Below are positions 29,361 to 60,173 of a DNA stretch of 60,482 nucleotides, one piece after another. Source of the DNA: an uncultured Planctomycetia bacterium (GTDB lineage Bacteria; Omnitrophota; Gorgyraeia; Tantalellales; Tantalellaceae); NCBI GenBank assembly GCA_964457005.1, contig CAYWDJ010000001.1:1-60482 (forward strand), given 5' to 3'. Made by a program: the position numbers and the translations under genes. The notes beneath the pieces were generated by a model. It worked only from the letters and a program-made list of their open reading frames with translations, did not search any database and had not been told where the DNA came from. Position 1 is the stretch's first letter. The number at the start of each line of letters is the position of its first letter.

Positions 29361-29434
29361 AAAAAACAAAAAGCCCCAAGCCGTTATGCTTCAACGACTT
29401 GGAGCTTCTATTTTTAAATGGTGGAGGTGCCGGG
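29361..29434 (-). repeat. tRNA/tmRNA-3'-end-like core (16 nt) + rho-independent terminator, downstream of the PGK-fusion gene
   Basis: Minus strand, 30 nt after the stop: CCCGGCACCTCCACCA-TTTAAAAATAGA-AGCTCCAAG(17 nt)CTTGGGGCT-TTTTGTTTTTT. The stem has a G.U on the minus strand but a C.A mismatch on the plus strand. Confidence 0.7.
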
Positions 29435-29463
29435 TAAAAACCAAAGCCCTCAAAACAGAGCAA

Positions 29464-32400
29464 TTAGGCCGCCGTAAGCACCTTGAGAATATTATCAAGT
29501 CCTTGTATGTCCATCGGAACTATAGGCCTTAGAACGTGGCCGATAACATAGCTGAACCTTTCATTAACGGTTTTTCCAGAATCTACCAGATTTGCTATGT
29601 ACTCATCCACATCAGCGGATCCACTGAGATATTCTGAAAGGATAGCTTTCAATACGGTATAACCGGATCTATCCCGATATTCTTCGGAAGGAAGGGTCCT
29701 TGCCAACAATATAGTTTCTAAGACTCCTCTCACAAAAGAATCGTGTCTCTCTCCCCTGCCAGGGATACCCTGCATGCTGAAATTCATGGGCAATACATCC
29801 GCAAAAACCTGTGGATTGGCATCTACTATTTCCTTCAAAACAGAATAGGTCAAATCCGTTGTGAGCAAACCTATCTTCGCCCCTTTATATCTGGCTACAA
29901 TTTCATGTAACCTGCCTATATCAGTATACTGGTTATATTGAACAAATTCGATATTACCGGCAGAAACAGATCCTTTTCCAAAAACTTCATTAATGAATTT
30001 TCCGCATTCTTTCTTGCCAGCAAAACTCTGCGGCACAATAAAAACCATCTTGTTAGATTCCGCGTCAGCCGCGATCTCCATAGCGGCCTTGTCTATAATA
30101 ACATCCGAAACTGGAGCTTCACTCTCTTCAGATTCCTGTTCGCCAGGCGGCATATTAAACATGTTCCAAGCAAGCCCTTTTTCGGTGGCCTTTTTTAAAG
30201 ACTGAACCGCGGGGAGGGGCTTTTGACCCGCTAAATACTGCAATGTAGCTCCTCCGGCAAGCGTCTGATAACTGAATCTATCTCCAAAAATATCCAAGGC
30301 CTTATCCGTATCTCCTCCTCCTCCGAATGAGAACAGATCTCCTTCCTCAGACCTCTCGGAGATCCTTCCGAAAACAATTCTCGTCCCTTCCGCGTATGCA
30401 TCATCGATGTCAAACGCCCCTAAAGGGCCCTTAATATATATCGTCTTTGCGGTATCAACAGCCCCCAGATATCTTCCAACAGTTTCAGGGCCTATATCAT
30501 AGAGCACCAGGTCTGTCCCGGCTAATTCCTCGACCTTAACTACCTTAACACCGTCTGGCCCTTTTACCACAACGTCAACAGGAGCCATAAATTTCCCCTT
30601 ATATGTGCTATCCAACTCTTTTATCTTAGCCAGCGCAGCGTCCAGGTCCATCTTACTTCTTAAGAATGCCACGTTCGCTTCACCTATATCTATACCCCTT
30701 GCCATTAAAAGCACATTCGCCAAGCCACCACCGGTTATGATAGTGCTTACCCAGTTTTCGCTCAATGCCCTTTCCATAAGATCCAGATAATCGTCTATTT
30801 TTATTCCTCCGAGCGCCATAACATAAGGTTGTTCTATCTCCTCGGTAGCTTTACCTAACCCCGTAAGCTCCTTTTCCATAAGACGTCCTGCAACATTAGG
30901 CACTCCGGTAAACCCGACAACACTCGCCGCTGCCCTGTGAGCAACTGAAAAGCCGTCTATTACATGTATGTCGATCAACGGCTGCAAATTCTCGACAAGC
31001 TCACCAAGAGAATGATCAACACCTTTCGCCTGTTCTCCTTTCCAGGAACGAACATTTTTCAGTATCAATATCTGCCCGGGCTTAAGATTACGAATGGCAT
31101 CTTTAGCTGTATCCCCAAACAGGTCATCTATAACTATCACATCATATTTCCTTCCGCTTTCAGGATCTATCGCTTCCATTTCCTGTTTTAAAACCGCCGC
31201 ATGCTGTTCCATAGTTTCAAGATAATCCTTATCACCCGGTCTGCCCTGATGACCCATAACAACTGTTTTGGCTCCTCTATCAGACAGTTCTTTCAATGTT
31301 ACAGCCGCCGCCTTGATTCTATTATTAGTTGTGACCTTCCCGCCTCGCGTCAAAGTCGTATTAATATCGACTCTTACACTTACTGTCCTGTCCTCAACAT
31401 CCACTTCATCCAATGTAAAATATTCTCTCTTTGTCCTATACTTACCAACAGGCACTATGTGCCTGTTATTACGTATCCTGGCTTTCATTAACTCTTGAAA
31501 ACTTGCTGCCTGGTCAGAGTCTACCCCCTCATGGGAGATCCCGGTTCTTCCCAGCAGCCCCGTTCCTCCGGCTGAAGCAGGCGAACCTCTTAATGTCCGC
31601 GCTCCGAATTCCTCCATAAAATAGAACACCATCGTGTCACCCAAACCATAGAGCTCTTTATCCGCACCCCTATTCCAATTTGCTGCCTGGATCCAGTGAA
31701 TAGTATTGGTGTCATTGTCATCATCATATTTAATGACCGTTCCGATCTCTATCCTCTGTTCTCCACTTGCGTCTGTGGATATCAACACAAAACCTTCTTC
31801 TTCATCAGGATCAGAGTAGGCAAGCCCTCCAAACTGGAGTATCCCCGCCTTCTGAATAAGAGGCAGCATGTCAGGACTAAATTTTCTAATCTCAAAGGTC
31901 CGCTCTTTACGCATCTTTCTATTCTGTATCCCGGCCAATATTTCTCTCTCGTCAGCGGCACTCTGCTGAGCTGCATAATAATCAACTTTATCCGGGGTCT
32001 GCCACCTGGTCTCAAAAGACCTCTCGCCGGCAACAGCCAACAGTGCTTTATCCGCCGCGGTTAATACAAGATTTTCGGGATCACTCAGCCATTTAGAGAA
32101 TATTTTCTCCATTTCCCGGCATTGTTTATGTTCTAATCCGGCCTTGGCAAAAACCTCATGCACGATTGCGCTATGAACACTGCCTGCGAACCCTTCAGGA
32201 ATATATATACCTACTCCCCCGGCGTGGGGCTCAGAAAGACCCGGTATAGACATCAACTGGCCTGAAGCTACAAGATTCTTGAACTGTTTGGCTATCGCGG
32301 GATTTACCCATTCAATAAATTCATTGGCTGAACCAACACTACCTATATCCAGGGTCTCAGCCTTCCCGCTGGTTATGGCTTCATGAATGATCTTATCTGC

Positions 32401-32988
32401 CGTATTCTCATGCGCGGCATATGTCATTATCGCGGCGTCATTAGCAACCTCTCGTTTCAAGCGAGCCACAAATTCCATAGCATTCGCCACTGAAGAGGAA
32501 ATTTGAGGAGCGATAAAATTCTCATACTCTTCCGGCGTAAAGACTTTAAACACATAAGTTCCGGACATCTCTTCTTTTATTGCGCAGCATACATAACTAT
32601 TGTCGTTTATGGAACAAGGAATGACCAGAAGATCACCGTCACCGTACTCTTGCTTCTTCCTGATATTGAATATAATGCTATCCCCCGGCCTCTCTATTCC
32701 CTCCGTTCCCTTTTCTTTAAGGATCTCATCAACGATAATGTTACGTCTGATAGCGTTGATGTCTCTACCCTTTTCCGCATACTCATACATTATCGTAGCC
32801 GTTAGCTTCATTACATCCCTAAGCGCGGGGGTCTCAATTGGAGCCAACCGTGATTCCGCGGCAAGATCGTCCACTGAAAGAATGTCTGAAGATATTCTTC
32901 CCCCTGAAAAGGCATCTATCACCATGACATTATTCGCTAAAAACGCGATAGTTGTAATAATTACGAGAAATTGTTTCATAACTTTCAT
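29464..32988 (-). CDS. Multidomain protein: signal peptide/anchor + ~520-aa unknown region + archaeal-type phosphoglycerate kinase domain + ~235-aa unknown C-terminal region
   Basis: The PGK domain (about nt 30190-31430) is collinear with archaeal PGK: FTLDEVDVEDRTVSVRVDIN, LSDRGAKTVVMGHQGRPG, ILILKNVR, FSVAHR, GGIKIDD, ITGGGLAN, GPLGAFD, FGGGGDT. Start trimmed to ATG 32988 (MKVMKQFLVIITTIAFL, AAGGAGA SD); the track ORF extends to 33045. Confidence 0.8.
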   Translation of the reverse strand: MKVMKQFLVIITTIAFLANNVMVIDAFSGGRISSDILSVDDLAAESRLAPIETPALRDVMKLTATIMYEYAEKGRDINAIRRNIIVDEILKEKGTEGIERPGDSIIFNIRKKQEYGDGDLLVIPCSINDNSYVCCAIKEEMSGTYVFKVFTPEEYENFIAPQISSSVANAMEFVARLKREVANDAAIMTYAAHENTADKIIHEAITSGKAETLDIGSVGSANEFIEWVNPAIAKQFKNLVASGQLMSIPGLSEPHAGGVGIYIPEGFAGSVHSAIVHEVFAKAGLEHKQCREMEKIFSKWLSDPENLVLTAADKALLAVAGERSFETRWQTPDKVDYYAAQQSAADEREILAGIQNRKMRKERTFEIRKFSPDMLPLIQKAGILQFGGLAYSDPDEEEGFVLISTDASGEQRIEIGTVIKYDDDNDTNTIHWIQAANWNRGADKELYGLGDTMVFYFMEEFGARTLRGSPASAGGTGLLGRTGISHEGVDSDQAASFQELMKARIRNNRHIVPVGKYRTKREYFTLDEVDVEDRTVSVRVDINTTLTRGGKVTTNNRIKAAAVTLKELSDRGAKTVVMGHQGRPGDKDYLETMEQHAAVLKQEMEAIDPESGRKYDVIVIDDLFGDTAKDAIRNLKPGQILILKNVRSWKGEQAKGVDHSLGELVENLQPLIDIHVIDGFSVAHRAAASVVGFTGVPNVAGRLMEKELTGLGKATEEIEQPYVMALGGIKIDDYLDLMERALSENWVSTIITGGGLANVLLMARGIDIGEANVAFLRSKMDLDAALAKIKELDSTYKGKFMAPVDVVVKGPDGVKVVKVEELAGTDLVLYDIGPETVGRYLGAVDTAKTIYIKGPLGAFDIDDAYAEGTRIVFGRISERSEEGDLFSFGGGGDTDKALDIFGDRFSYQTLAGGATLQYLAGQKPLPAVQSLKKATEKGLAWNMFNMPPGEQESEESEAPVSDVIIDKAAMEIAADAESNKMVFIVPQSFAGKKECGKFINEVFGKGSVSAGNIEFVQYNQYTDIGRLHEIVARYKGAKIGLLTTDLTYSVLKEIVDANPQVFADVLPMNFSMQGIPGRGERHDSFVRGVLETILLARTLPSEEYRDRSGYTVLKAILSEYLSGSADVDEYIANLVDSGKTVNERFSYVIGHVLRPIVPMDIQGLDNILKVLTAA

Positions 32989-33180
32989 ATGTGAAGTCTC
33001 CTTAAATTGGCTAAGTGTACAAAAAATCAAATCGTAAAACTTCAATGCAGCACAATGTAAATGGGTATATTGCTGTCATTTCCGTTCCGACAATTTAAAA
33101 TCTTAACACCACTATCTTACCAGATGAATCTAGTTAGGGCAATAAAAATCTATGTTACTTTTTCATACCTAACATCCTAT

Positions 33181-33208
33181 ATAATAACAGATTAATTTTC
33201 CCTTGTAA
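33181..33208 (-). promoter_or_regulatory. Candidate promoter of the PGK-fusion gene
   Basis: Minus strand reads TTACAA - 16 nt - TATTAT, about 190 nt upstream of ATG 32988. Confidence 0.35.
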
Positions 33209-33394
33209 CACCTTACCATATAAGCATTTACAACTCACGCCGACAGAGGATACCGTAAGATACCCCTTGAAGCCCCTATGCAGGAAACCTTAGCGTGCTC
33301 CACCCTTCCCGCAGCCGAATACAGCGGAACTGAAAATCTGCTCAACCCGATGTGCGGTAGTGACACTATCACCATAGAAGCTGCGTTGATATCT

Positions 33395-33500
33395 TTGATC
33401 AAGGCTCCTTCTTTTAGCCCCACTAGCTCTCACGGTGTTGGCTTGTGGATACTTCTAAGCTCGCTAGTTAACGAGCACTGTTGGGGCCCCGGAAGAGTAC
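33395..33500 (-). repeat. Relic of the modular intergenic repeat (U2-type modules)
   Basis: Plus strand ccttcttttagccccactagctctcacggtgttggcttg matches 58605-58642 with 1 mismatch. The following ttctaagctcgctagttaacgagcactgttgggg parallels 60049-60085. Confidence 0.5.
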
Positions 33501-33574
33501 CATTGTTTTGCAAAGAGGCATAAAAAGAAGTATAATTACAGATAGGGTTTCAAATATATAACAAGGAGACAGAT

Positions 33575-34075
33575 ATGGGAAAAATGTTCGATGAAAAAGG
33601 TAAATTAAATATCCCCGTAGCGGGATCTATCAGCATACCAAAATCAAAGATACATAAAAAAGGCAATCAACTTATTATCAGCAAGGCATACTGCCCAAAA
33701 GGGCACAGCCTCATGAGCAACGTACAAGTTGATGGTGAACCGGGACTTCATTTTATTTATACGAATAAAGCAGACACGAAAGAAACAGATATCGTCATCT
33801 CTTCTGTCGTAAAAAAATGCAGAAAAAAGATTTTGAAAGGCGAAGCTTTTAAAAAGAATGAAATGGTTAAGATTCTCTGCCCCACATGCCGGACAGAACT
33901 TGATATACTGTTCGACTGCGAATGTGGTGCACCCATATATATATTTTATCTAGACAAAAAGCGAAATTACTATTATGGTCAGTCTTTCTGCTCCCGAATC
34001 GGGTGTGTAAAGGCAAGTCAACTTCGTTTCTCACAAGATACACTCCAAGAATTCATCACCAAACACACATTTTAG
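33575..34075 (+). CDS. Hypothetical Cys-rich (zinc-ribbon-like) protein, 166 aa
   Basis: AAGGAGA SD. CPKGH...CPTCRTELDILFDCECG...CSRIGC cysteine pairs. It is one of only three plus-strand genes and I recognise no family. Confidence 0.5.
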   Translation: MGKMFDEKGKLNIPVAGSISIPKSKIHKKGNQLIISKAYCPKGHSLMSNVQVDGEPGLHFIYTNKADTKETDIVISSVVKKCRKKILKGEAFKKNEMVKILCPTCRTELDILFDCECGAPIYIFYLDKKRNYYYGQSFCSRIGCVKASQLRFSQDTLQEFITKHTF

Positions 34076-34104
34076 AAACATATAAAAACACTGCCCACAT
34101 ACAC

Positions 34105-34310
34105 AAAAATCCCACCGCCTTGGATGGCAGTGGGATTTGATTTTTGGTGGAGGTGCCGGGATTCGATATGCGGTGGAGTTGTAACTTGTTCTACCCCATA
34201 CACTTATGACATAACTTGTTTATTTGTAAAAGATTTTGGATTCCACACAGCATACAACATCTTACAAGGTTTTCCCCTGGATTCACTTTGGATGGGCGCG
34301 TTTTGGGCAC
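34105..34310 (-). repeat. Long copy A of the repeat: ~165-nt body + 22-nt tRNA-like 3' end + terminator (possible structured RNA or att-like site)
   Basis: The minus strand starts at the HK stop and runs ...GCGCCCATCCAAAGTGAATCCAGGGGAAAACCTTG...ATCGAATCCCGGCACCTCCACCA (core 34166-34145). It continues AAAATCAA-ATCCCACTGCC(6)GGCGGTGGGAT-TTTTGTG. The hairpin (34109-34136) has a G.U on the minus strand and a C.A on the plus strand. The plus-strand T-run also lets it terminate the convergent 33575..34075 gene. Confidence 0.75.
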
Positions 34311-35317: not shown

Positions 35318-35332
35318 ATATGAGTACTTGCC

Positions 35333-37435: not shown

Positions 37436-37453
37436 AACATTCCCTTTATTCGT

Positions 37454-38632: not shown

Positions 38633-38647
38633 GGCCCCATTTGTAGC

Positions 38648-44460: not shown

Positions 44461-44461
44461 G

Positions 44462-48582: not shown

Positions 48583-49629
48583 TTATAGGCAAGCCAGATC
48601 AACATTATCAAAATTCCTTTTATAGTACCTCATATAATCTACTTTGCACTCCAAAGATTGCATGACTGCATGAGAAAAGTTAACGCCCTCAAATTTTTGC
48701 GCGCTTCCTAATCCCCCGGGTGAAAACACATTAATTTCCATTAATTTGTCTCCGACAATATCCAGTCCAACCAAGAACATTCCATCCTGAACTAATTTTG
48801 GACGAACGATCTCGACGATATTAAGCATCTCTGGGGTTATTTCTGCCTGTTTCAACTTTCCGCCTGCATGAATATTGCTCCTCATATCATCCCCTGTACG
48901 AACACGACGAAAAGCACAATATTTACCTTTGTATTTTAGAGCCTGTCCATTCATAACAAAAAGTCGGGTATCTCCTTCTTCGGCTTTAGGTAAATATTCT
49001 TGCGCAATCACATATCCATCTCTGCTAACCGCATCGATCATCTGATTTAAATTTGAAAGATCACTGGGATTAACAAGAAAAACACCTTGGCCTCCCGATC
49101 CCTGTAAAGGCTTTAAAACAATTTTCCCTCCTTCCTGTTTAGCAAATTCTTTTATTTCATCCCTATTACGAGTAATCAACGTCCTGGGCCTTACTTCTTC
49201 AGGAAAAAGCTGAAAATACATTTTATTCATCGCTTTTGAAAGACCATTCGGATCATTCAAAACAATAACTCCGTTACGCATGGCAACTCTACCAAAAATA
49301 ATGCCTGAAGATTGAGCCCATGATCGTAAGCCGGCATCCTCGGCAGGATCACTTCTTAACATTAATATGTCTAAGTCATCCACAGTAATTTTCTCAACAG
49401 GAGCTTTTTGCGTTTGAATGTCCTTAATTAATCTATCTGAAAGTTTATATTTTTTCTGCGGAATTGCTTGGGCATGCGCACAAATTTTTTCATCAAGGTC
49501 ATAAACAAAGTCCCCTGCCCCAATTATCCAAACTGAATGACCTCTATTGACTGCCGCCATAGCGAGTCGGATTGTTGTATACCCTGCTTCCTCAGTCTTT
49601 ACATCATTAACTACAAACCCTAGTTTCAT
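48583..49629 (-). CDS. Glutathione-synthetase-like ATP-grasp ligase (GshB/RimK superfamily)
   Basis: Collinear with E. coli GshB by eye: MKLGFVVND, DILMLRSDP, IVLKPLQGSGGQGVF, AQEYLP, GDTRLFVMNG, NIHAGG, FLVGLDIVGDKLMEINVFSPGG. Confidence 0.8.
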   Translation of the reverse strand: MKLGFVVNDVKTEEAGYTTIRLAMAAVNRGHSVWIIGAGDFVYDLDEKICAHAQAIPQKKYKLSDRLIKDIQTQKAPVEKITVDDLDILMLRSDPAEDAGLRSWAQSSGIIFGRVAMRNGVIVLNDPNGLSKAMNKMYFQLFPEEVRPRTLITRNRDEIKEFAKQEGGKIVLKPLQGSGGQGVFLVNPSDLSNLNQMIDAVSRDGYVIAQEYLPKAEEGDTRLFVMNGQALKYKGKYCAFRRVRTGDDMRSNIHAGGKLKQAEITPEMLNIVEIVRPKLVQDGMFLVGLDIVGDKLMEINVFSPGGLGSAQKFEGVNFSHAVMQSLECKVDYMRYYKRNFDNVDLACL

Positions 49630-51536
49630 TTTAATCCTCCTTCTGGCAAATTATAAACTTCTATCCCTTTTTGTATCCTTTCCAATTTTTCTTTGACGCC
49701 GGCTGTCGATAAAAATCTTGGACGCAAAACAGATGTAGACAATATTTTTCTTGAGACCAGTTCTTTTATAACAGGAATATGATCAAATCCAAATTTCCCG
49801 ATAAACAATAGATCTAGATCTCCCCCTTTTTTTATAAACTCCAGAACTTTCTGCAGCCCCCTGAGATAAATAATGTCTTTAATTGATCCGCCGGCTCTAT
49901 AAGTACGAAATGTTATCCTAAAAGCATGCCCTTTGTCAAAGCTATATTTATTTATTAACCCATCAAACGTTTCTACGAAATTCTTTCCGTCTGCAAGCCA
50001 TCTGGCTGCAATAACTCTCGCAGCAACCGTTCGCAATCTGGCAGGCGTGAGTTCCCCTGAAAGAAATTCAGCTAAAAGAGCAAGGCCCTCTTGTAATTCT
50101 TCATATCCTGCAAGTCCGCTATATAGTTGTTTGAATGGCTGCTGACGGCCATTATAGTACGTTACCAAATGTGTCCCCACTTCATGTTGGATCAAAGCGT
50201 TGACTCTCGACTCAGAGATTTTAGCATTCTTCCCGATGTGAACCTTATTCCCAACAACAAGAATTCCCGGGACACTTTCATCTATCTCTGCTAAAGCGTC
50301 AAACATATGGCACTCCTGCTTATAATGGAGGATCTCATCGTTTACTTTTTTCAGGAAGCCCATTGAGTCTATTAAATTTTTACTTTCGGATGATGAAGGT
50401 ATCTTATTTAATATTTTTTGCGCTAACTCTGTAAGCTTATTATCTACTTTTCCGTAGAGCTGTAAGTTGCTAAACAAAAAACGTTTAGTTCCTCTATTTA
50501 TTAACATATTTAAACGGTGTTCCAATTCAAATTGTTTTTCTCTGAAAAGATCAGCTAATGTAGGGTCTTCAATTCGTTCAATAGGGATATTAAACAACCT
50601 TCGCTTAATTAGTGCAGGATCTATCGGTAAAGGTCGATAATAAAATTCCGGTATTTTACTGAACTTATCAGTTTTAAACTGATTCCAGGCAGCTCCCGCA
50701 TTCACAGGAGTAATCAACAATAGAAAATCAAAGGCATTGCTAACTTCAGCTAATTTTGAATCTATTTCCCAAACAGCTTTTACAACCGCTCTTCGCCCCA
50801 ATGCCTTGTAATTAGACGGCTGGTGATCTGTATGCTCCTTCAAAAAAATAAAACATAATTGTTTCAAAGCCTTGGATAAACCACGATGCAGCGATCGCAG
50901 GACCAGGGGAAAAAGCTCTCCGTTCTTCTGGCTTCTGTATATGGGATTTACGGTTATTCCAACTGAATAAGATCGATACTTTTCACTAGCTTCTTTTTTT
51001 AGTAACAATGGTAGCCCTTGTGGTGCAACCTTGGCCTCAAAGGACATTTTTACATCAGCATATACTTTGAGGATCCGGATCTTCTTAAGAAAATCCGCAA
51101 AACCTGATAGCATTGGGGTGTAAAGACTAAATTTCGGATCTTCCGTAGAGATCCTGAACATCGTTTTTTGCAATGCCCCTTTAGTTGTTTTTGGACTCTT
51201 ACCCCTTTCCGCCCATAGCTCCAACAGTAAAAATCCTCCAAATTCAGCAGACATGATCTTAACAATATTTTCAAGTAGCTTTTCTAAATTCTTCTGATAT
51301 CGTGGATCTGCGGTTACGATCAAATATGAGGCTTCACCCATTATCAGCCGCTCTGTTCCTTCATCCTTAGAATTCAAGGGTTTTCGATAAACAAACAGGA
51401 ATGGCATTGGCCGATCAATGTGGATCCGTCCTCCCGGAAGGGTTCGGCGAACCCTCTTCCCTTGCGAAAGTCTTGTACATATTGCCTTGACTAGCCGGTC
51501 AAATTTTTCTTCTGATGATCTTATTTTTTTATTCAT
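49626..51536 (-). CDS. QEGLA-motif / DUF1704 (MATCAP-like metallocarboxypeptidase) family protein
   Basis: Literal motif YEELQEGLALLAE and the upstream metal-site-like IQHEVGTHLVT. 636 aa. 4-nt overlaps with both neighbours. Confidence 0.8.
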   Translation of the reverse strand: MNKKIRSSEEKFDRLVKAICTRLSQGKRVRRTLPGGRIHIDRPMPFLFVYRKPLNSKDEGTERLIMGEASYLIVTADPRYQKNLEKLLENIVKIMSAEFGGFLLLELWAERGKSPKTTKGALQKTMFRISTEDPKFSLYTPMLSGFADFLKKIRILKVYADVKMSFEAKVAPQGLPLLLKKEASEKYRSYSVGITVNPIYRSQKNGELFPLVLRSLHRGLSKALKQLCFIFLKEHTDHQPSNYKALGRRAVVKAVWEIDSKLAEVSNAFDFLLLITPVNAGAAWNQFKTDKFSKIPEFYYRPLPIDPALIKRRLFNIPIERIEDPTLADLFREKQFELEHRLNMLINRGTKRFLFSNLQLYGKVDNKLTELAQKILNKIPSSSESKNLIDSMGFLKKVNDEILHYKQECHMFDALAEIDESVPGILVVGNKVHIGKNAKISESRVNALIQHEVGTHLVTYYNGRQQPFKQLYSGLAGYEELQEGLALLAEFLSGELTPARLRTVAARVIAARWLADGKNFVETFDGLINKYSFDKGHAFRITFRTYRAGGSIKDIIYLRGLQKVLEFIKKGGDLDLLFIGKFGFDHIPVIKELVSRKILSTSVLRPRFLSTAGVKEKLERIQKGIEVYNLPEGGLK

Positions 51537-52324
51537 ATTTTATTCAATTCTTCAAGAACTCCGGGCACAGCTGATTGCAATGCTTGAAAAATAGTTTGTA
51601 TTTTTTCTTTGTCAGGCTCGCCGGTCCATTCATTCATAAAGATTTTTTTAAATTCAATAGATAGAACACATGCTGCATCGGGAAATTTTTCATGCACAAA
51701 TTCAGGGAAATGTCCCCCGCGAAACTTAATATTTTCTCTAACGTCTAATTTTCTTCCAAAATAATTAAAACTAGACAAATCATCAATGAAATTATTAATA
51801 ACACCCTTCCAACGAGATCTATCGAGCATCGTTCCTGTTCCAATATTCACTTCAGGATTGTCTTTGCCCGCAGCAGGCTGAGCATCAGGTCCATTTCGCC
51901 TATGGTTATAGGAATGCACATCAAAAACAACAAACTTTCCAAATTTACTCTCAAATTCTGATAGCACATCATGAATATTTTTGTAAAACAAGTCATATGT
52001 CTGTAACGAACTTCTCACAAATTTCTCGCCTGGTTTTGATTCCCAAACATTAAGCCCCCAAGCATCATCAGGAGTCAAATAAACAGCCTTATCCCTTGCG
52101 CGATTCAAATCAACCTCAAATCGTGATGTCTTTACAATCAAACTATTCTCAACGACACCTGTCCACGCTCCAGTGAAAGGATCTTCCTCTCGCAAACGAT
52201 CCTCACTGCTCAATGCCATTAACTTTAAGGCTTCTTCGCTAAGCTGGTGCCCATCATGTATGGCGGTAGCAATCACCGGAACATCATTATTTTTTAAATT
52301 TAATAAATAGTCCATATTTGTCAT
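51533..52324 (-). CDS. N-formylglutamate amidohydrolase (FGase) family protein
   Basis: IHDGH, EEDPFT, DLNR, VFDVHSY and NIGTG motifs in the order expected for the FGase/HutG-like fold. 263 aa. Confidence 0.7.
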   Translation of the reverse strand: MTNMDYLLNLKNNDVPVIATAIHDGHQLSEEALKLMALSSEDRLREEDPFTGAWTGVVENSLIVKTSRFEVDLNRARDKAVYLTPDDAWGLNVWESKPGEKFVRSSLQTYDLFYKNIHDVLSEFESKFGKFVVFDVHSYNHRRNGPDAQPAAGKDNPEVNIGTGTMLDRSRWKGVINNFIDDLSSFNYFGRKLDVRENIKFRGGHFPEFVHEKFPDAACVLSIEFKKIFMNEWTGEPDKEKIQTIFQALQSAVPGVLEELNKI

Positions 52325-52380
52325 CTTTTTTAAAATAGATCTTCAAAGCACTAGATCAACGCTTCCTATAAATCATGCTA

Positions 52381-52410
52381 ATTATACCTTAAAATGAAAA
52401 TAATAGACAA
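52381..52410 (-). promoter_or_regulatory. Candidate promoter of the FGase-QEGLA-ligase-pgs operon
   Basis: Minus strand reads TTGTCT - 18 nt - TATAAT, 57 nt upstream of ATG 52324. Confidence 0.4.
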
Positions 52411-52540
52411 TACTGTTATTGGCAATACCTCCCTACAATTTTCACATGTTTTTTTGAGGCGGAAAGACAAAAATGGCGACCTGTATCATAAAGCCGCCTG
52501 GGAAATGGGCACGGTGTGAGCACACATGAAGTCTCCCTAA

Positions 52541-52715
52541 AAATAAAAACCCCAAGTCATTATTAAATAACAACTTAGGGTTTCTATTTTTATTTGGTGG
52601 AGGTGTACGGGATACAAAAACCGAACCATGTGAGGTTTTTGAACCCCGGAATCTACACAAGCTATGAGCGAAGCGAATAGCAAAGAATTAGACGAAGTCT
52701 GATTCTTACATTTAA
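52541..52715 (-). repeat. Copy C of the repeat (short body + diverged core + terminator), second unit of a tandem array
   Basis: Minus strand AGACTTCGTCTAATTC...CCGGGGTTCAAAAACCTC...TATCCCGTACACCTCCACCA (core 52611-52595), then AATAAAAATAGAA-ACCCTAAGT(15)ACTTGGGGT-TTTTATTTTT. The hairpin has a G.U on the minus strand only. Confidence 0.6.
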
Positions 52716-53020
52716 AACAAAAAACCCGGAAGAGGATTTATTCTCTTCCGGGTTTAGTTTTAAATGGTGGAGGTGCCGGGATTCGATATGCGATGGAGTT
52801 GTAACTTGTTCTCCTCCATACACTTATGGTGATAACTCCTTTATTTAGAAAAGTTTAGGTTCTTACAACATCTTACAAGGTTTTCCCCTAGATTCACTTT
52901 GGATGGGCGCGTTTTCGCTGCGCCTTCTCTCGCTTTGCTCGAGGATCCTTCTGGACCCGCCTTGACAACTAGAACGGTGTCGAGCACACAATAGTGGCGG
53001 AGAAACTACACAAACAACTC
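52716..53020 (-). repeat. Long copy B of the repeat: U2-type module + ~165-nt body + 22-nt tRNA-like 3' end + terminator
   Basis: Begins 5 nt after the stop at 53025. Shares with copy A a 48-nt block (1 mismatch) and a 47-nt block (1 mismatch) flanking a diverged middle. Core 52786-52765; perfect hairpin CCCGGAAGAG/CTCTTCCGGG (52725-52753) plus a T-run. Confidence 0.75.
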
Positions 53021-53024
53021 GCTG

Positions 53025-53753: not shown

Positions 53754-53810
53754 ATTTGACCCCTTTTACGAAAAAGTTTTGTTCCCCTATAAAAATAGTC
53801 TACTACGATT

Positions 53811-53872
53811 AAAAACCCTATGCAACTATTTTAGTTGCATAGGGTTTAGTTTTGAATGGTGGAGGTTTCAGG
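53811..53872 (-). repeat. Minimal copy of the repeat (10-nt core ACCTCCACCA + terminator) immediately after the TolC-like gene
   Basis: Minus strand, 6 nt after the stop: CCTGAAACCTCCACCA-TTCAAAACTAAA-CCCTATGCAAC(7)GTTGCATAGGG-TTTTT. The stem is a perfect 11 bp. Confidence 0.65.
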
Positions 53873-53878
53873 CACACA

Positions 53879-55276: not shown

Positions 55277-55280
55277 AATA

Positions 55281-58200
55281 TTATCTCGCTGCCAGCCGGT
55301 ATTGAACTCCCTTATAGGAACTGTATACACATGGTACAAGGATCAATGTTATGACCGTACCGAATAAAAGCCCCCACGCAAGGGCCAGCATCATCTGTGC
55401 GAGCATTGCATCGTATCCCGCCCATCCATAGGCCGTTGGTATTATGCCGACAACCGTGGTTATCGTCGTTAAAAGAACAGCCCTTAAGCGGGTTTTCGCT
55501 ATAGCCGATATTTGGAGATCCTTTTTATCTTTTCCCTCTTTTGTGTCGAACATTTTATCCAGTTTGGTAAGCATTATTATAGCGTCATTCACAACAACTC
55601 CCGCCAGGCCAAGAGCCCCGATAACGGCGAAAAACCCATACATCCTTATGCCCTGAAGCCTGAAAGCCAGGATTATGCCCACCAACCCGAACGGAATTAC
55701 GGCCATAATAATGAGAGGCTTTATTAATGAATTAAAAAGGACCGCCAGTATTATGTATATCAAAAATGCCGCCATTATAGCCGCCGAGTAAAAATCACTT
55801 CCTGACTCCCTCGAATCTTTAACTTCTCCCTTGAACTCTATTATGGCCGTTGGATATTTTTTCTTGAATTCCGGAAATACTTCCTCTTCAAAATATTCGG
55901 CTATTTCAAGAGGCGTTTTTTTTGATCCGGGAACAATATCTGCGTAAAGCGTTGTACATCGTTTCATATCCTCCCTGATAATAGAATCAGGGCCTTCCAC
56001 TTCTTCAATATTCACCAGATCCCTCAAGGGCACAAGATACTGCCCTTCATTCTCGACAGGGATATCGAATATTTTAGTTATATCGTCTTTGGCTTCGGGA
56101 ATAACCGTAAGCCTTACATATACCTCCTCATCCTCACCGCTGAATTCATAAAGAATAGTCCCCTCAAGAGAAGCCCTGAGCGTTCTGGCAATATCGGAAG
56201 GGTTTATGGCCAGCCGCCTTGTTTTATCCCTGTTCAACGTAAGCCTGTATTCCGGATTATACGCGGGCCTGTCTATTTCAACGTTATTAAGCCCCTGGTA
56301 TTTGCCCATCAGGGCTGCAAGCTCGTCGGATATCTTGTATCTGCGCTGGACATTGTTCTCTTTTACCATTATTTCAATAGGGCTTGAGCTGTCCTGACCA
56401 TGCCAGGTCTTGCTTATTCGGACCTTAGTTATACCCGGGATGTCTTTGATCTGCTCTTTCCATTCTTTAATAATATCGTCGGACGATCTCTTCCTTTTTT
56501 CTTTAGGCAGGATCTCTACGCGCATCCTGAACTTGTTTTCCTGCGCCGCCACCCCCCACCTGCTCTTTGCTATCTCATTCCTGAAACCCGTAACCCCGCT
56601 ATCTCTGTATCCCAATACAATATCCTCAATGGGCTGCGTCATCGCGGCTGTCTGATACCTTTTTGTCCCGGTCGGCGTCTCAGCGGTGATCCGTATCTGG
56701 TTGGTTTCCTCATCCGGGAACATTACAAATTTCATGTGACTGGAAACTACATATCCTGAGACTAGAAGCAGTATTCCAAAAAATAGAAATACGGCCTTTT
56801 TGTTTATGAGGAGCCTGTTTATTAACCCCTCATATTTCTTTTCAGCCAGATCGATCCAGTACTTTCTATGTGATCTTACGGAGCTTTTGTCTTCGCCCGA
56901 TGGTCCTTTTAACCGCCTTTTCCACGAAGGTCCGACAATATTGCTTACACCCTCCTTGAAAGATATCATTAAGTGCCCCGGAAGTATACAAAGGGCTTCA
57001 AAAAGGCTCCCGCCAAGCATAAGGAAAACTACCGCGGGTATGAATCGTACCATTAGGCCGAAACGTCCGGAAAAGAAAAAAAGCGGAATAAAGGTTACAC
57101 ATGTGGTAAGTATGCTGGCTACTATTGGAAGAAAAACAAAAGAAGTTCCTTTAACCGCTGCTTCTTGCCTGTTCATCCCTCCCATACGGAGTCGGTTGAT
57201 GTTTTCAGCTACAACTATGGCATCGTCAACAACCATACCCATGACTATTACGATAGCGGCAAGCGTAATATTGTTTACCGAATATCCTATCATCAGTCCG
57301 GCGATAAGGGTAAACGCGAATGTAAAAGGTATCCCCATCGCGACCCAGAAGCCTGATTTAAAATCCAAAAAAAGAAAGAGCATTATCAGTATAAGAATGA
57401 AGCCTATCGCCCCGTTCATGCCTATCAACCTGAGCCGGTTTCTTACATCCACTGCCTCATCGTCCATAAGCACAACTTCTATATCCGTCCCATTGATCAC
57501 ATTCTTTTCAAACTGTTTAACTGTCTTCTCAACAACTTTTACGGCATCGATTATTCCGACGTTCGAATTTTTAGTGACTTTCAGGAAGATCCCTTCATGG
57601 CCGTCTATTTTTAGAACAGTTTTTTTCTTCTCGTACCCTTTGGCAACATCGGCAAGATCCGATACGCGTATTATCCGGCCTTCAAACCCGCCCTGGATAC
57701 TCATATCTTTAAGCTTTTCTACCGTATCCAGCTGCCCGGAAAGCGTAACCTTCGGTTCTCTTGCATTTTCTATGTTACCGGCCGGCTGCCGCACATTGCC
57801 ATCGGTTATCTCTTTCATTACGGTGCTGAAAGGAATATTGTATTCCTTCAGTTTGTCAGGGATGACCTCAATGTGTATCTCATCTTTCAAGTAACCGTCC
57901 CGTTGGACGTTATTCACCGCAGGAAGGTTCATAAGTTCATCTTCAAGAACAAGCGCGTATGTCTGCAGCTTAGCGCGTGACTCTACATCAAGGATGTTGT
58001 GCCCCTTGTAAATAAGCCCCACATCTATCACGGCTTTCCTGGAAGTTTTGAAGACCCGGATGTCTGGTTCATCCACTATATCGCTCGGCAAGTCGACATC
58101 AAGAACTTCATTGCGCAGTTCAGTTATTACCGCGTCAATATCAGGATGGTCTTTTTCGATCTCGGCCGTTACCGTGCAGTTCCCTATGCTGGTGGAACTG

Positions 58201-58448
58201 AATATCCTGTAAACACCATCGGTATTCCTTATAGCCTCTTCTATGGGCTCGGTAACGTAATATTCGACATCCTCGCTTGACGCTCCGGGATAAGTTGCGG
58301 ATATCCTGACCTGGTCAAAAGTAATATCGGGTAGTTCCTCTTTAGGTAAATTAATCCATGCAAATATTCCTCCCACAAGAACGCAGACGAATATCAAGTT
58401 ACTTAAGAGATGCCTTTTTAAAAAAAATTGAATTAGTCTTTCACGCAT
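55281..58448 (-). CDS. RND efflux transporter permease (AcrB/AcrD/AcrF family)
   Basis: 1055 aa. 12-TM pseudo-duplicated layout with two large periplasmic loops. Motifs include GMVVDDAIVVAENI and AGVVVNDAIIML. Confidence 0.9.
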   Translation of the reverse strand: MRERLIQFFLKRHLLSNLIFVCVLVGGIFAWINLPKEELPDITFDQVRISATYPGASSEDVEYYVTEPIEEAIRNTDGVYRIFSSTSIGNCTVTAEIEKDHPDIDAVITELRNEVLDVDLPSDIVDEPDIRVFKTSRKAVIDVGLIYKGHNILDVESRAKLQTYALVLEDELMNLPAVNNVQRDGYLKDEIHIEVIPDKLKEYNIPFSTVMKEITDGNVRQPAGNIENAREPKVTLSGQLDTVEKLKDMSIQGGFEGRIIRVSDLADVAKGYEKKKTVLKIDGHEGIFLKVTKNSNVGIIDAVKVVEKTVKQFEKNVINGTDIEVVLMDDEAVDVRNRLRLIGMNGAIGFILILIMLFLFLDFKSGFWVAMGIPFTFAFTLIAGLMIGYSVNNITLAAIVIVMGMVVDDAIVVAENINRLRMGGMNRQEAAVKGTSFVFLPIVASILTTCVTFIPLFFFSGRFGLMVRFIPAVVFLMLGGSLFEALCILPGHLMISFKEGVSNIVGPSWKRRLKGPSGEDKSSVRSHRKYWIDLAEKKYEGLINRLLINKKAVFLFFGILLLVSGYVVSSHMKFVMFPDEETNQIRITAETPTGTKRYQTAAMTQPIEDIVLGYRDSGVTGFRNEIAKSRWGVAAQENKFRMRVEILPKEKRKRSSDDIIKEWKEQIKDIPGITKVRISKTWHGQDSSSPIEIMVKENNVQRRYKISDELAALMGKYQGLNNVEIDRPAYNPEYRLTLNRDKTRRLAINPSDIARTLRASLEGTILYEFSGEDEEVYVRLTVIPEAKDDITKIFDIPVENEGQYLVPLRDLVNIEEVEGPDSIIREDMKRCTTLYADIVPGSKKTPLEIAEYFEEEVFPEFKKKYPTAIIEFKGEVKDSRESGSDFYSAAIMAAFLIYIILAVLFNSLIKPLIIMAVIPFGLVGIILAFRLQGIRMYGFFAVIGALGLAGVVVNDAIIMLTKLDKMFDTKEGKDKKDLQISAIAKTRLRAVLLTTITTVVGIIPTAYGWAGYDAMLAQMMLALAWGLLFGTVITLILVPCVYSSYKGVQYRLAAR

Positions 58449-58488
58449 AGTAAGCGTATTTTATCATGAATTACTCTATTTATAAATG

Positions 58489-58516
58489 ATTATAGTATTT
58501 ATACTTCTAAGCCCAA
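58489..58516 (-). promoter_or_regulatory. Candidate promoter of the RND-TolC operon
   Basis: Minus strand reads TTGGGC - 16 nt - TATAAT, about 40 nt upstream of ATG 58448. Confidence 0.45.
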
Positions 58517-58574
58517 AAATATGCTTTTTCACGAGGTGATAAGCATGAAAACTAAGACCTTCATCAAACAGGCT

Positions 58575-58930
58575 CATTATCTCTTCGCTTCGCTCGAGGA
58601 TCCTTCTTTTAGCCCCACTAGCTCTCACGGTGTCGGCTTGCGGAACCTTCCATATCGCCTCTTAAACTCGCACGGTTTGGACACACTTGAAGCCTCCCAA
58701 AAAAACAAAAAACCCCAAGTCATTATTTTACAACAACTTAGGGCCTATATTTTTAAATGGTGGAGGTGCCGGGGTTAGATTAAGGGTGTTTTTGCAAACC
58801 CTCTATTTACGGTGCTTTCGCACTTATCTCGTGTATTTATAAGAAATTACAGAGTGCGGTTGTTTACATTTAGCTACATATGATTACAGATGTTTTGATG
58901 TGAAATGGGCACTGTTTGGGCTCTAACATA
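58575..58930 (-). repeat. Composite copy F: diverged ~165-nt body + 17-nt core + terminator + s1/U1/U2 modules
   Basis: The minus strand starts 2 nt after the HEPN stop: GCCCAAACAGTGCCCATTTC..., GTGC-GAAA-GCAC, AGGGT(10)ACCCT, ...CCCCGGCACCTCCACCA (core 58774-58758). The hairpin at 58712-58744 has a G.U on the minus strand only, then a T-run. Modules follow, including the 45-nt U1 (58634-58678). Confidence 0.65.
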
Positions 58931-58931
58931 C

Positions 58932-59348
58932 TTACTGTTTAGTATCTTCTTCCACTAAACGTTTTGCCTTATCTAAAGTCGATTCAACAAAGCTTATATA
59001 CTCTACACATTCCTTGGTTGTTACCTCTATACCTCCATCATACAAATCTGTATTTCTTTTAGATCTCATCAAGTTTCCTAGCGCACTAACTCCATCATCA
59101 GCAAGAATATCCGCAAGTTTTTCTATGATCTTAATATGATGTCCTCGTACACTTTTCACTTTTCTCCCATAAAAACTAATAAGGGCTATGCCTGTCTTCA
59201 AAAGCGCGGTATATGAATAATTAAACTTCACATCTAAAAATTTATCTTTTTTTGCAATATCCAAATCACGCAAAGCATTCTTAATGTTATTGTGAACCTG
59301 TTCTTGTGTAAATTTGAACTTTGCAAAACATTTATCATCAAATTTCAT
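58932..59348 (-). CDS. HEPN-domain protein (putative toxin of a HEPN/MNT pair)
   Basis: 138 aa, all-helical. The region LMRSKRNTDLYDG resembles the HEPN R-x-x-x-x-(H/Y) region. The start overlaps the MNT stop by 1 nt (TAATG). Confidence 0.6.
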   Translation of the reverse strand: MKFDDKCFAKFKFTQEQVHNNIKNALRDLDIAKKDKFLDVKFNYSYTALLKTGIALISFYGRKVKSVRGHHIKIIEKLADILADDGVSALGNLMRSKRNTDLYDGGIEVTTKECVEYISFVESTLDKAKRLVEEDTKQ

Positions 59349-59893
59349 TAAATAACCTCAATGTATTTTTCTTTAAAAACAGTCTCAATAAAAGGATCTT
59401 TTCCCTTTTGTCTTTTTTCAAAATCTATTTTGTCCATATTCACAACATTGATTTCTCTGCCGATTTCTTTTTGAATTTTACTGATCTCTTTTTGCAGATC
59501 CATTACACTATGCTCACCTACTACTAAAAGATCTATGTCGCTATGTGCCTCCATTGAATCTTTGGCATACGAACCAAAAAGATAAACTTTTTCGATGCCC
59601 TTTATTTTAGTGAGCATATTTTTTAACTTACTTTCGACACCTATTGTTTTAAAAACTATTTTCTTATATTCTTCATACAGTGGATATAACTTATTGATCG
59701 AATATATTTTTTGATTTCCCCTTGTCTCGCTTGACAATAGTCCATCATTTTCAAGTTCTTTGAGTTTTTTAAGAAGATTCCTTTTATCCAAATTCAGTTT
59801 CCTCTCCATCTCATTCACGAAAAGACTATCTTCAGGATTGAGGAAAAAATAATTCAAAAGTACTTTTGTTATCTTTGATCTCATTGATATCAT
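59348..59893 (-). CDS. Winged-helix + minimal nucleotidyltransferase (MNT) protein (putative antitoxin)
   Basis: N-terminal wHTH-like region. The nucleotidyltransferase motif VYLFGSYAKDSMEAHSDIDLLVV is GS...DxD. AAGGAG SD. Confidence 0.75.
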   Translation of the reverse strand: MISMRSKITKVLLNYFFLNPEDSLFVNEMERKLNLDKRNLLKKLKELENDGLLSSETRGNQKIYSINKLYPLYEEYKKIVFKTIGVESKLKNMLTKIKGIEKVYLFGSYAKDSMEAHSDIDLLVVGEHSVMDLQKEISKIQKEIGREINVVNMDKIDFEKRQKGKDPFIETVFKEKYIEVI

Positions 59894-59917
59894 AACGTGT
59901 CTCCTTTTACACCGATA

Positions 59918-59946
59918 AGTGTATCATATTACACCTCACTAGTCAA
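59918..59946 (-). promoter_or_regulatory. Candidate promoter of the MNT-HEPN pair
   Basis: Minus strand reads TTGACT - 17 nt - TACACT, 25 nt upstream of ATG 59893. Confidence 0.5.
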
Positions 59947-59954
59947 GATAAGGT

Positions 59955-60173
59955 CATTAAGGCATGCTTTCGCTGCGCCTTCGGCTTGCGGAACCTTCCA
60001 TATCGCCTCTAAAACTCGCACGGTTTCTCTCGCTTTGCTCGAGGATCCTTCTAAGCTCGCCTAGGAAGCTCGCACGGTGTGGGCACACATAAAGTCTTCA
60101 TACAAACAAAAAGCCCCAAACCGTTATGTTTCAACAACTTGGAGCTTCTGTTTTTAACTGGTGGAGGTGCCGG
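59955..60173 (-). repeat. Composite copy H: 15-nt core + terminator + s1/U2/U1 modules, upstream of the TA pair
   Basis: Minus strand ...CTCCGGCACCTCCACCA (core 60173-60159), then GTTAAAAACAGA-AGCTCCAA(19)TTGGGGCT-TTTTGTTTG, then AGACTTTATGTGTGCCCACACCGTGCGAG. U2 and the 45-nt U1 (59982-60026) follow. The hairpin has a G.U on the minus strand only. Confidence 0.65.

Follow-up and report, generated by a model that had tools for sequence, protein, structure and literature searches.

Copies of the ssrA 3′ End as Probable Attachment-Site Scars in an Omnitrophota-Like Genome

Copies of the ssrA 3′ End in the Window

The stretch of DNA analysed here (the window, 60,482 nt) carries seven minus-strand copies of a short core, ..CACCTCCACCA, which is the 3′ end of the tmRNA gene, ssrA. 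The seven copies are probably attachment-site (att) scars of integrative elements targeting the ssrA 3′ end, with units that are mostly integrase-less and CIME-like.

Five copies are exact over 13 nt and two have diverged. On the minus strand, GGCACCTCCACCA occurs without mismatch at 29419, 34145, 52765, 58758 and 60159, and with two mismatches at 52595 and 53857. At up to two mismatches the window gives 10 matches against 0.61 expected, a number reached by 0 of 100 shuffles. Two two-mismatch matches at 4997-5021 lie inside the coding gene of an FAD-dependent protein and are unrelated, as is a plus-strand match at 49282. After an A/T spacer, each copy leads into a strong 13-22 bp hairpin with a T-run. 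The seven same-strand, terminator-linked copies described in the first-pass annotation were all recovered.

The tmRNA genes of Omnitrophota MAGs, confirmed by ARAGORN and Rfam, end in GGACCCGGGTTCGAATCCCGGCACCTCCACCA, followed by (N)TTTAAAA and a terminator. This end is identical to copies 52765 and 34145 at 22 of 22 positions. The tmRNA 5′ end of these relatives is GGGGGUG, which supplies the G for a G3.U70 pair. A tRNA or tmRNA 3′ end with this pair had been proposed from the window alone, and the Omnitrophota genes bear it out by ending exactly in TCGAATCCCGGCACCTCCACCA and starting with GGGGGUG. In many viral contigs, tmRNA-like sequences whose T-arm is intact also terminate in the 16-mer CCCGGCACCTCCACCA.

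The identity of each copy was measured as the uninterrupted run matching the relatives' ssrA 3′ end, counted back from CCA. Copy 60159 (60159..60173) has 15 nt, CCGGCACCTCCACCA, the same as in the relatives' ssrA, and continues into the trailer GTTAAAA. Copy 58758 (58758..58773) has 16 nt, one fewer than the upper length of 17 nt first given for it, and the trailer TTTAAAA. The 10-nt fragment ACCTCCACCA at 53857..53866 lies 13 nt downstream of the stop codon of an outer-membrane efflux gene, and its trailer, TTCAAAACTAAACCC, is nearly identical to that of copy 52765. The two 22-nt fragments are found at 52765..52786 (TCGAATCCCGGCACCTCCACCA, beginning in the T-loop) and at 34145..34166. A 16-nt fragment at 29419..29434 stands about 30 nt past the stop codon of a 1193-aa PGK-domain gene. 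The diverged fragment at 52595..52611, CCCGTACACCTCCACCA, has a run of 11 nt and the upstream arm GTGTAGATTCCGGGG. Of the 7-nt trailer NTTAAAA, 5-7 positions are kept in six of the seven copies.

Neither ARAGORN nor Rfam detected a tRNA or tmRNA gene in the window, in agreement with the earlier view that the copies are fragments. The accompanying claim that no upstream CCGGG exists fails for copy 52595, where CCGGGG about 40 nt upstream is the remnant of a longer ssrA-like fragment kept in relatives.

Terminators and Arms

The terminator stems fall into four classes, in keeping with the four or more unrelated stem sequences counted initially. The D1 class follows copies 60159, 58758, 52595 and 29419, and copies 34145, 52765 and 53857 have one class each. 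Read on the minus strand, the D1 hairpins contain 4-6 G.U pairs and have folding energies of -14 to -25 kcal/mol, compared with -5 to -14 for the plus strand. A single G.U is present in each of the hairpins at 34145 and 13390. The minus-strand reading first put forward is thereby upheld.

The D1-family terminators, all on the minus strand, are located at 60100..60146 (15 bp, 5 G.U, with T-run; copy 60159), 58703..58750 (17 bp, 6 G.U, with T-run; copy 58758), 52538..52588 (22 bp, 4 G.U) and 29362..29411 (18 bp, 4 G.U). The minus-strand terminator at 52716..52758, AAACCCGGAAGAG..., is of the type found after intact ssrA in the relatives' loci L126, L133, L136 and L160. The one at 34102..34140 (minus strand, 13 bp, CCCACTGCC...GGCGGTGGG) resembles the terminator of intact ssrA in L142 and L149, as well as the one downstream of a degenerate L136 fragment. 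The hairpin at 53808..53850, annotated on the minus strand, is symmetrical (16 bp) and equally stable on either strand. A core-less related terminator, noted earlier near 13.35 kb, is present at 13336..13392, minus strand, with a downstream arm alignable with the D1 arms. A second one at 24816..24866 (minus strand, 19 bp, 5 G.U) is possibly an older, decayed junction.

The fragments are bordered by arms, likewise read on the minus strand. Left arm B takes the place of the ssrA body at 52787..52915 and recurs at 34167..34304 next to fragment 34145..34166; the two copies are 95-98% identical except in one variable stretch. The left arm of copy 58758 (58775..58925, starting with GAGCCCAAACAGTGCCCATTTCACATCAAAACA) has 78% identity to the arm of the fragment at L136:2949 and is further related to L130:3382-3540. 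The motif AATCGTGGTGG (60218..60228, minus strand), situated about 45 nt 5′ of the core of copy 60159, occurs as a tandem pair in the arrays of L124, L130, L136 and L141 and is a candidate binding site for a recombinase or accessory protein. The motif GTGTGCCCACACCGTGC (60072..60088), confined to the minus strand, is placed about 80 nt 3′ of the same core, directly past the terminator, and may be an arm-type site. Minus-strand motifs in the corresponding position are GTGTCCAAACCGTGC (58670..58684), past the terminator of copy 58758, and GTGCTCACACCGTGC (52509..52523), past that of copy 52595.

Distribution around ssrA in Relatives

The comparison set comprised 44 relatives' loci with intact ssrA, 8 from GTDB and 36 from metagenomes. 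For the GTDB loci the count upstream of ssrA is 0 fragments (34.4 kb), versus 10 downstream (24.8 kb); for the metagenome loci it is 0 (93.5 kb) versus 13 (103.7 kb). Pooled, about 22 extra core fragments lie downstream (128 kb) and none upstream (also 128 kb), exclusively on the ssrA strand. In at least 10 relatives a second fragment, homologous to the diverged copy 52595, follows ssrA at +138 to +255 nt. The array heads of 10 or more relatives, consisting of gene end, terminator and second fragment, align with window positions 52805 to 52465. Over 79 nt, copy 52765 and its terminator share 90% identity with the end and terminator of intact ssrA in L133 and L160, and the copy is read as a probable displaced former gene end. 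In the close relatives L130 and L141, the flanks are 94.5% identical and the units enclosed by them differ.

In relatives, four of the window's gene blocks are found no more than 6 kb downstream of ssrA, with orientation kept. The ssrA neighbourhood of L155 includes the window's AcrB, outer-membrane efflux gene and CorA; that of L165 includes the window block at 15.5-18.3 kb, and that of L125 CorA. In L136 the FAD-dependent protein gene and CorA are found with fragments between them whose arms or terminators match copies 58758, 52595 and 34145. On the strength of these blocks, the window is inferred to be a variable ssrA-downstream region, with its own ssrA past position 60482. The window being the whole contig, nothing lies "just beyond 60482" in GCA_964457005.1, where the intact gene had been suggested to lie; a 343-nt extension in another assembly runs into a protein gene, not ssrA.

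Integrases were not detected among the window ORFs, as expected of the integrase-less units proposed at the outset. The first-pass annotation advised looking for a tyrosine recombinase next to the intact gene, and the ssrA-adjoining sequence of relatives does include a tyrosine integrase in L134 and L143 and a partial one in L162. Other ssrA-adjoining genes encode an AEP primase with DUF3987 (L140), a DnaG-type primase (L164) and a BREX island (L147).

Proposed Origin of the Copies

The one-sided, same-strand distribution of fragments in relatives and the window genes adjoining their ssrA speak for the earlier suggestion that the copies are remnants of repeated integration or accretion. Integrative elements would carry their own last 10-22 nt of ssrA together with trailer and terminator. 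Because such an element brings a copy of the ssrA end, ssrA would remain intact after insertion, and every insertion would move the previous gene end and terminator further downstream. Repeated insertion, followed by recombination between copies and decay, could then yield a same-strand array in which each unit would run from terminator through right arm, own promoter and cargo, and left arm to the ssrA fragment. The window would represent a distal portion of an array of this kind, in an Omnitrophota-like genome, with the intact smpB-ssrA head expected past 60482. The pair 52765/52595 would be a former array head, moved on by subsequent insertions of 7.7 kb or more. Since the units lack integrases, they may be fixed remnants or cis-mobilizable, CIME-like units needing an integrase in trans. 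That fragments measure 22, 15-16 or 10 nt is in line with crossovers at different positions, in the T-loop or on the acceptor 3′ side. Crossovers at these two places follow the sublocation classes for tRNA and tmRNA integration reportedly set out by Williams in 2002.

Several observations count against att scars. Neither the window nor the 343-nt extension contains the intact ssrA. The window has no integrase, and just two distinct integrases were found in about 128 kb of ssrA-downstream sequence of relatives. The strain is represented by three further assemblies, all collinear across three of the cores, giving no strain-level presence/absence polymorphism. Not every window block is a clean att-flanked unit: compared with L155, the segment of about 15 kb that separates the outer-membrane efflux gene from CorA has fragments at one end only. 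The cargo is largely ordinary (transporters, a two-component system, metabolic genes), and the two D1-type terminators lacking a core belong on this side as well.

Alternative Explanations

An integron-like platform is an unlikely alternative. Here the fixed landing site for integrase-less units would be ssrA itself or the conserved second fragment some 170 nt further on, and the mostly single-gene, co-oriented units would be true cassettes captured, excised and reshuffled by a recombinase encoded elsewhere, with the arm motifs as its candidate binding sites. Relatives indeed have many integrase-less units of 0.15-1.4 kb between fragments, for example with a DUF4143 ATPase (L130, L133, L141, L142) or HATPase/DUF4325 (L130, L149). 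Of the 76 ORFs downstream of ssrA, 69 share its orientation, fragments outnumber detected integrases about 10:1, and the same arms and terminators stand beside different genes in different genomes. A duplicated fragment-terminator-fragment block in L124 is expected if non-adjacent copies recombine, and the arms hold two strand-specific motifs with 11-nt periodicity. However, in no relative's locus does an integrase gene stand beside smpB-ssrA, circular or empty-site junctions were not observed, and the three assemblies of the window's strain are identical over three of the cores. The units start with a terminator and apparently have their own promoter, unlike integron cassettes, and decay of ordinary islands also yields integrase-less units.

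A generic terminator-associated repeat (REP- or MITE-like), merely resembling the ssrA end and spreading with its terminator independently of ssrA, has a much smaller probability. These modules account for all nine strong terminator hairpins in the window, those of D1 type at 24.8 and 13.4 kb being core-less, and other mosaic intergenic repeats occur alongside. Against this stand the exact ssrA identity of up to 22 nt, running on into a real ssrA trailer and terminator type, and the window genes mapping beside relatives' ssrA. The first-pass annotation had left such an element open; the strict one-sidedness in the 44 loci, with 0 copies upstream or on the opposite strand, disfavours it.

A functional RNA 3′-end module is the least probable reading. 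In it the 3′ UTR of each upstream gene would end with a tRNA-like tag, ...CACCUCCACCA, recognised by tRNA/tmRNA-processing enzymes or acting through its anti-Shine-Dalgarno-like CACCUCC. In its favour, CACCUCC resembles the 16S rRNA 3′ end, and the copies lie in 3′ UTRs directly ahead of terminators on the transcribed strand. Against it, they have no acceptor or T-stem partner and no ARAGORN or Rfam match, anything between 10 and 22 nt is conserved in them, their left flanks belong to unrelated families, and their distribution follows ssrA and not any gene class.

Comparison with Known Systems

The closest precedent for att scars at ssrA is provided by the ssrA-specific islands of Dehalococcoides (McMurdie et al. 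2011, PMC3146451), where tandem arrays of ssrA direct repeats, integrase-less units included, have already been described. There, several tandem islands likewise lie downstream of a single-copy tmRNA gene, with repeats on the same side throughout and within 100 kb (PMC3146451). McMurdie et al. suggested that some units, likewise devoid of an integration module, are cis-mobilizable elements growing by accretion (PMC3146451). The phylum differs (Chloroflexi versus Omnitrophota-like), and so do the recombinases: 16 Dehalococcoides islands have the serine-recombinase module DsiB (PMC3146451), whereas the 60-kb window has no recombinase and those seen in relatives are all tyrosine integrases. Unlike in Dehalococcoides, the fragment lengths are heterogeneous (10-22 nt) and many units are very small (0.17-1.4 kb). 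Each window fragment has a strong terminator, a word absent from the main text of PMC3146451.

In the tRNA and tmRNA islands found by Islander and TIGER (PMC4383910, PMC12424338), the target gene is similarly split and restored by the island. The displaced 3′ fragment marks the far island end, and reuse of one site gives tandem arrays. Islander needs an integrase gene in the island, and the window units, having none, would therefore go uncalled by its definition.

CIMEs, also cited in PMC3146451, are cis-mobilizable elements described for the ICEs of Streptococcus thermophilus. They too are att-flanked segments without integrase or transfer functions, in tandem with other site-specific elements (accretion). 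Their mobilisation in trans was demonstrated experimentally, whereas that of the window units is hypothetical. Integron cassette arrays are similar in their short, mostly single-gene, co-oriented units, each closed by a recombination site. They differ in that no IntI-type integrase adjoins the platform here, the sites are gene 3′-end copies and not folded attC sites, and the units open with a terminator and apparently have their own promoters.

Repeated insertion of mobile DNA at ssrA is a known process, probably seen here in the little-studied phylum Omnitrophota.

Copies of the ssrA 3' End in the Window

The 13-mer GGCACCTCCACCA is present on the minus strand of the window as exact copies at 29419, 34145, 52765, 58758 and 60159 and, with two mismatches, at 52595 and 53857. 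All seven copies, named here by their start positions, are on the same strand. The search yielded 10 core matches against a mean of 0.6 in shuffled sequences, and none of 100 shuffles reached 10; the dispersed same-strand repeat reported in the first-pass annotation was thus confirmed. Each of the seven copies is followed by an A/T-rich spacer and then by a long hairpin with a T-run. The hairpins belong to four classes: the D1 family after copies 60159, 58758, 52595 and 29419, and singletons after 34145, 52765 and 53857. Two more D1-type hairpins, at 24823-24863 and 13341-13390, have no core. Apart from these nine hairpins, no terminator-like site in the window has 13 bp or more. The D1 hairpins fold more stably on the minus strand than on the plus strand, by 8-13 kcal/mol, and include 4-6 G.U pairs there; reading them on the minus strand is consistent with the orientation of almost all window genes.

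Scanning of viral contigs with CCCGGCACCTCCACCA gave many sequences in which an intact T-arm, GGACCCGGG-TTCGANT-CCCGG, stands directly before this 16-mer, and in such a context it is the 3' end of tmRNA genes (ssrA). A scan of GTDB representatives with the core and the seven-base trailer that separates it from the terminator returned 16 loci, mostly from Omnitrophota MAGs; the window contig was not among them. The tmRNA genes called at these loci by ARAGORN terminate with GGACCCGGGTTCGAATCCCGGCACCTCCACCA; (N)TTTAAAA and a terminator come next, and the genes of the relatives L136, L141 and L159 were supported by Rfam (153-178 bits). With the ARAGORN/Rfam-confirmed ssrA of the Omnitrophota MAG relatives as the reference, copies 52765 and 34145 match its 3' end at 22 of 22 positions each, which upholds the earlier assignment of the core to the end of a tRNA or tmRNA gene. 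The other five copies match over 16, 16, 15, 11 and 10 nt counted back from the CCA. The trailer NTTAAAA is kept in six of the seven copies. The 5' end of the relatives' tmRNA genes is GGGGGTG and therefore gives the G3.U70 pair that had been predicted from the core.

No tRNA or tmRNA gene was found in the window by ARAGORN, and Rfam gave no match at the gathering score; at E<=1, no relevant match was obtained for 52.3-60.5 kb. The check proposed in the first-pass annotation was thus negative for the window and positive for the Omnitrophota MAGs, where ssrA has this end. The cores were rejected as tRNA or tmRNA genes or pseudogenes, as no cloverleaf or tmRNA fold was detected by either program. 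It is unlikely that these gene-end copies serve as a functional tRNA-like RNA tag. A T-box, riboswitch or attenuator, suggested by the order of core, terminator and downstream gene, was dropped because Rfam matches are absent and the cores follow stop codons instead of lying inside leaders.

Position of the Array Relative to ssrA

The window is a complete NCBI contig with the closest similarity to Omnitrophota MAGs (82% nucleotide identity to L136 over 1.5 kb). In relatives, four separate blocks of the window lie no more than 6 kb downstream of ssrA, each oriented so as to place ssrA beyond 60482. These are AcrB, an outer-membrane efflux gene and CorA in L155 (~70% nucleotide identity, ~65% for the CorA gene), the 15.5-18.3 kb region in L165 (77%), the FAD-dependent protein gene (window 3.7-5.2 kb, 82%) together with CorA in L136, and CorA in L125. 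From these gene blocks we infer that the window is ssrA-downstream DNA. In L136, the FAD-dependent protein gene and CorA are split by core fragments whose arms (the sequences flanking a core) or terminators match those of copies 58758 (78%), 52595 and 34145 (85%) but adjoin different genes.

The intact gene suspected just beyond 60482 did not appear: a 343-nt extension of the contig end, taken from another assembly, is not ssrA and matches no array head among the fetched relatives' loci. Copy 60159 was also rejected as the end of a truncated ssrA, since the 323 nt upstream of it and the 343 nt of the extension represent a protein gene and an arm.

The stretch 52805->52465 can be aligned to the heads of the arrays in at least 10 relatives, over the gene end, a terminator and a second fragment. 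The second fragment of these heads has the arm GTGTAGG.NCCGGGG...TTTCCCGGCACCTCCACCA and lies at +138 to +255. At 52765, the ssrA body is replaced by an unrelated left arm, B, which also precedes copy 34145; the terminators after both copies are of types found after intact ssrA in other relatives. The 52765/52595 pair is read as a former gene end displaced by integration at the T-loop.

The conserved head of the locus in relatives comprises tRNA-Leu(CAG), smpB and ssrA, with no recombinase beside it. In eight GTDB loci with intact ssrA, 10 fragments were found in 24.8 kb downstream and none in 34.4 kb upstream; the corresponding values for 36 JGI metagenome loci were 13 fragments in 103.7 kb and none in 93.5 kb. 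One of the ten GTDB fragments, at +199 in L134 with one mismatch, is inside a small ORF and may be due to chance. About 22 fragments are thus located downstream in the 44 loci, all on the ssrA strand, and no copies were found in 128 kb upstream of ssrA or on the opposite strand. This one-side, one-strand pattern is the product expected of integration into the ssrA 3' end and not of a general terminator repeat. The association of every window copy with a terminator had left room for a generic terminator-linked element of the REP/BIME type; such repeats would be scattered in both orientations at any locus, and the distribution in the 44 loci makes this alternative unlikely. The main interpretation of the first-pass annotation, namely remnants of integration at a tRNA or tmRNA gene, agrees with the confinement of the fragments to the downstream side and strand of ssrA.

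Arms and Intervening Modules

Two short motifs were found only in these arrays and only on the ssrA strand. AAWCGTGGTGR is located ~45 nt 5' of the core, in many cases as two tandem copies at 11-nt spacing (window 60218; L124, L130, L136 and L141). GTGCCCAAAnnGTGC follows the terminator, ~80 nt 3' of the core, and is found again where long left arms begin; the window has three such sites against 0.1 expected. By analogy, the placement of both motifs might correspond to that of the arm-type sites of a lambda-like attP. A search of IMG/VR for source elements gave no matches to the tandem CGTGGTG motif or to the Omnitrophota-type ssrA end, and the GTGCCCAAAC motif was found in one unrelated contig without cores.

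Mosaic modules of ~50 nt are present at 59961-60084, 58588-58680, 52906-52990 and 33393-33485. They lie in the interval from a core with its terminator to the gene that follows, or from a gene to the core that follows. Their form is ACCGTG(C/A)GAG..GGCGA..GAAGGATCCTCGAGCAAAGCGAGAG, with additional GGCGCAGCGAAA(A/G)C hairpins, and Rfam gave no match. A group II intron is represented by its 5' part (Rfam group-II-D1D4-2, 103-108 bits) at L130:5012-5129 and L141:10747-10864, where it is inserted in the arrays downstream of ssrA in these two related MAGs, directly after GTGCCCAAA(C/T)(A/G); the L130 contig ends inside this intron. An origin of the mosaic ACCGTGCGAG... modules as remnants of this intron was not supported, as the similarity to the L141 intron covers only the first 15-18 nt and no intron was matched by Rfam in the window.

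Units and Their Cargo

Six fragment-bounded units were distinguished in the window: 60159-58758 (1.4 kb) with a nucleotidyltransferase and a small partner ORF, 58758-53857 (4.9 kb) with AcrB and the outer-membrane efflux gene, 53857-52765 (1.1 kb) with one unknown gene, 52765-52595 (170 bp), which is empty, 52595-34145 (18 kb) with transport and metabolic genes, and 34145-29419 (4.7 kb), a block with a 1193-aa PGK-domain protein. No recombinase families were found by a Pfam scan of 32 long ORFs between 18.9 and 59.9 kb, and a phmmer search with the integrase of L134, the only complete one among the relatives, gave no match in any window ORF of at least 80 aa; as proposed earlier, no integrase was detected in the units. 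Five ORFs between the copies have no Pfam match at all.

In the first unit, at 58932-59893 on the minus strand, the nucleotidyltransferase (Polbeta/NTP_transf_2) is followed by an overlapping 138-aa ORF without Pfam match, and this layout resembles, by analogy, that of an MNT/HEPN toxin-antitoxin pair. In the 1193-aa protein (29464-33045, minus strand), the phosphoglycerate kinase match is limited to residues 545-941; no Pfam family matches the ~540 residues before it or the ~250 residues after it. Genes for an N-formylglutamate amidohydrolase-like protein, MATCAP (PF08014) and a glutathione-synthetase-type ATP-grasp protein are clustered at 48583-52324 on the minus strand.

The tyrosine recombinase sought beside an intact gene was present in relatives: an integrase of this type directly follows ssrA in L134 and L143, and a partial one is found in L162. 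Other genes located directly after ssrA are an AEP primase with DUF3987 and a WYL-domain regulator (L140), a DnaG-type primase (L164) and a BREX island (L147). Many of the relatives' units are single genes between fragments without integrase, such as a DUF4143 ATPase or HATPase/DUF4325. Single-gene units with the AAA_14/DUF4143 ATPase recur directly after ssrA or between fragments in L130, L133, L141 and L142. The orientation of ssrA is shared by 69 of the 76 ORFs downstream of it.

Variation Between Genomes

In gene order, the window departs from L136, L155 and L165, and L130 departs from L141, with fragments at several breakpoints; the CorA-side breakpoint between the window and L155 has no fragment. 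In L130 and L141, the flanks are 94.5% identical while the units between them differ. Exact-protein look-ups returned three contigs, all collinear with the window, and one queried protein had no record. Three independent same-strain assemblies are identical across three cores, and therefore there is no sign of current mobility.

In L124, an Omnitrophota-type MAG, a ~215-nt block (core, terminator, spacer and second core) is duplicated 6.5 kb apart, at 1013-1230 and 7548-7765, a product expected of recombination between copies that are not adjacent. A number of metagenome contigs have their ends in or beside a core or ssrA end, including the window (~310 nt from copy 60159), L175, L130, L139, L144 and L145. 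These repeats probably fragment the assemblies of such genomes.

Origin of the Array

Repeated site-specific integration at ssrA is the best-supported explanation of the window array. Each incoming element would restore the ssrA end and bring a terminator, so that older gene ends would pile up downstream of ssrA; recombination between copies and decay would follow. The Islander method builds on integration at tmRNA genes with displacement of a 3' fragment (PMC4383910). In Dehalococcoides, tandem arrays with more than 12 direct repeats of ssrA were described within 100 kb downstream of the gene; some of their units have no integration module and were taken to be cis-mobilizable elements (PMC3146451). 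Because Islander-type integration and such arrays have already been described, the window array is of a known kind and its novelty is low to moderate. Peculiar to it are the heterogeneous fragment lengths, the strong terminator after each fragment, the very small units and the second fragment conserved across the lineage. Judged by title and abstract, none of the six papers matched by a full-text search for Omnitrophota together with tmRNA concerns such arrays.

Genomic islands in the Islander sense contain an integrase inside the unit, whereas none was detected in the window units. Given their integrase-less state, these units would be either fixed remnants or similar to cis-mobilizable elements, which have att-site flanks and no integrase or transfer genes. 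All six units are bounded by fragments and have no detected recombinase.

It is improbable that the array is used in the manner of an integron, by a recombinase acting in trans. Integrons have IntI and attI beside the array and folded attC sites, whereas the conserved head in relatives is tRNA-Leu(CAG)-smpB-ssrA without a recombinase beside it and each repeat copies a gene end, with left arms that vary among the copies. More specifically, Omnitrophota could keep a dedicated cassette platform at ssrA, where a conserved pseudo-3'-end and fragment-terminator modules would be the landing or exchange sites and a recombinase acting in trans would capture and shuffle integrase-less, self-terminated, mostly single-gene units. 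The pseudo-3'-end in question lies ~170 nt after ssrA and is described as conserved phylum-wide. We regard this as doubtful; if true, the platform would be a functional integron analogue built on the tmRNA gene end.

For now, the array counts as one more case of the familiar traffic at tmRNA genes. Should the small units without integrase be mobile, they would constitute a cassette system distinct from integrons. Omnitrophota are known almost exclusively from MAGs. The repeat, previously unannotated, is now recognized as marking the variable region downstream of ssrA in this phylum, and the array offers landmarks by which accessory genes, defence genes and candidate integrative elements of such genomes can be located.
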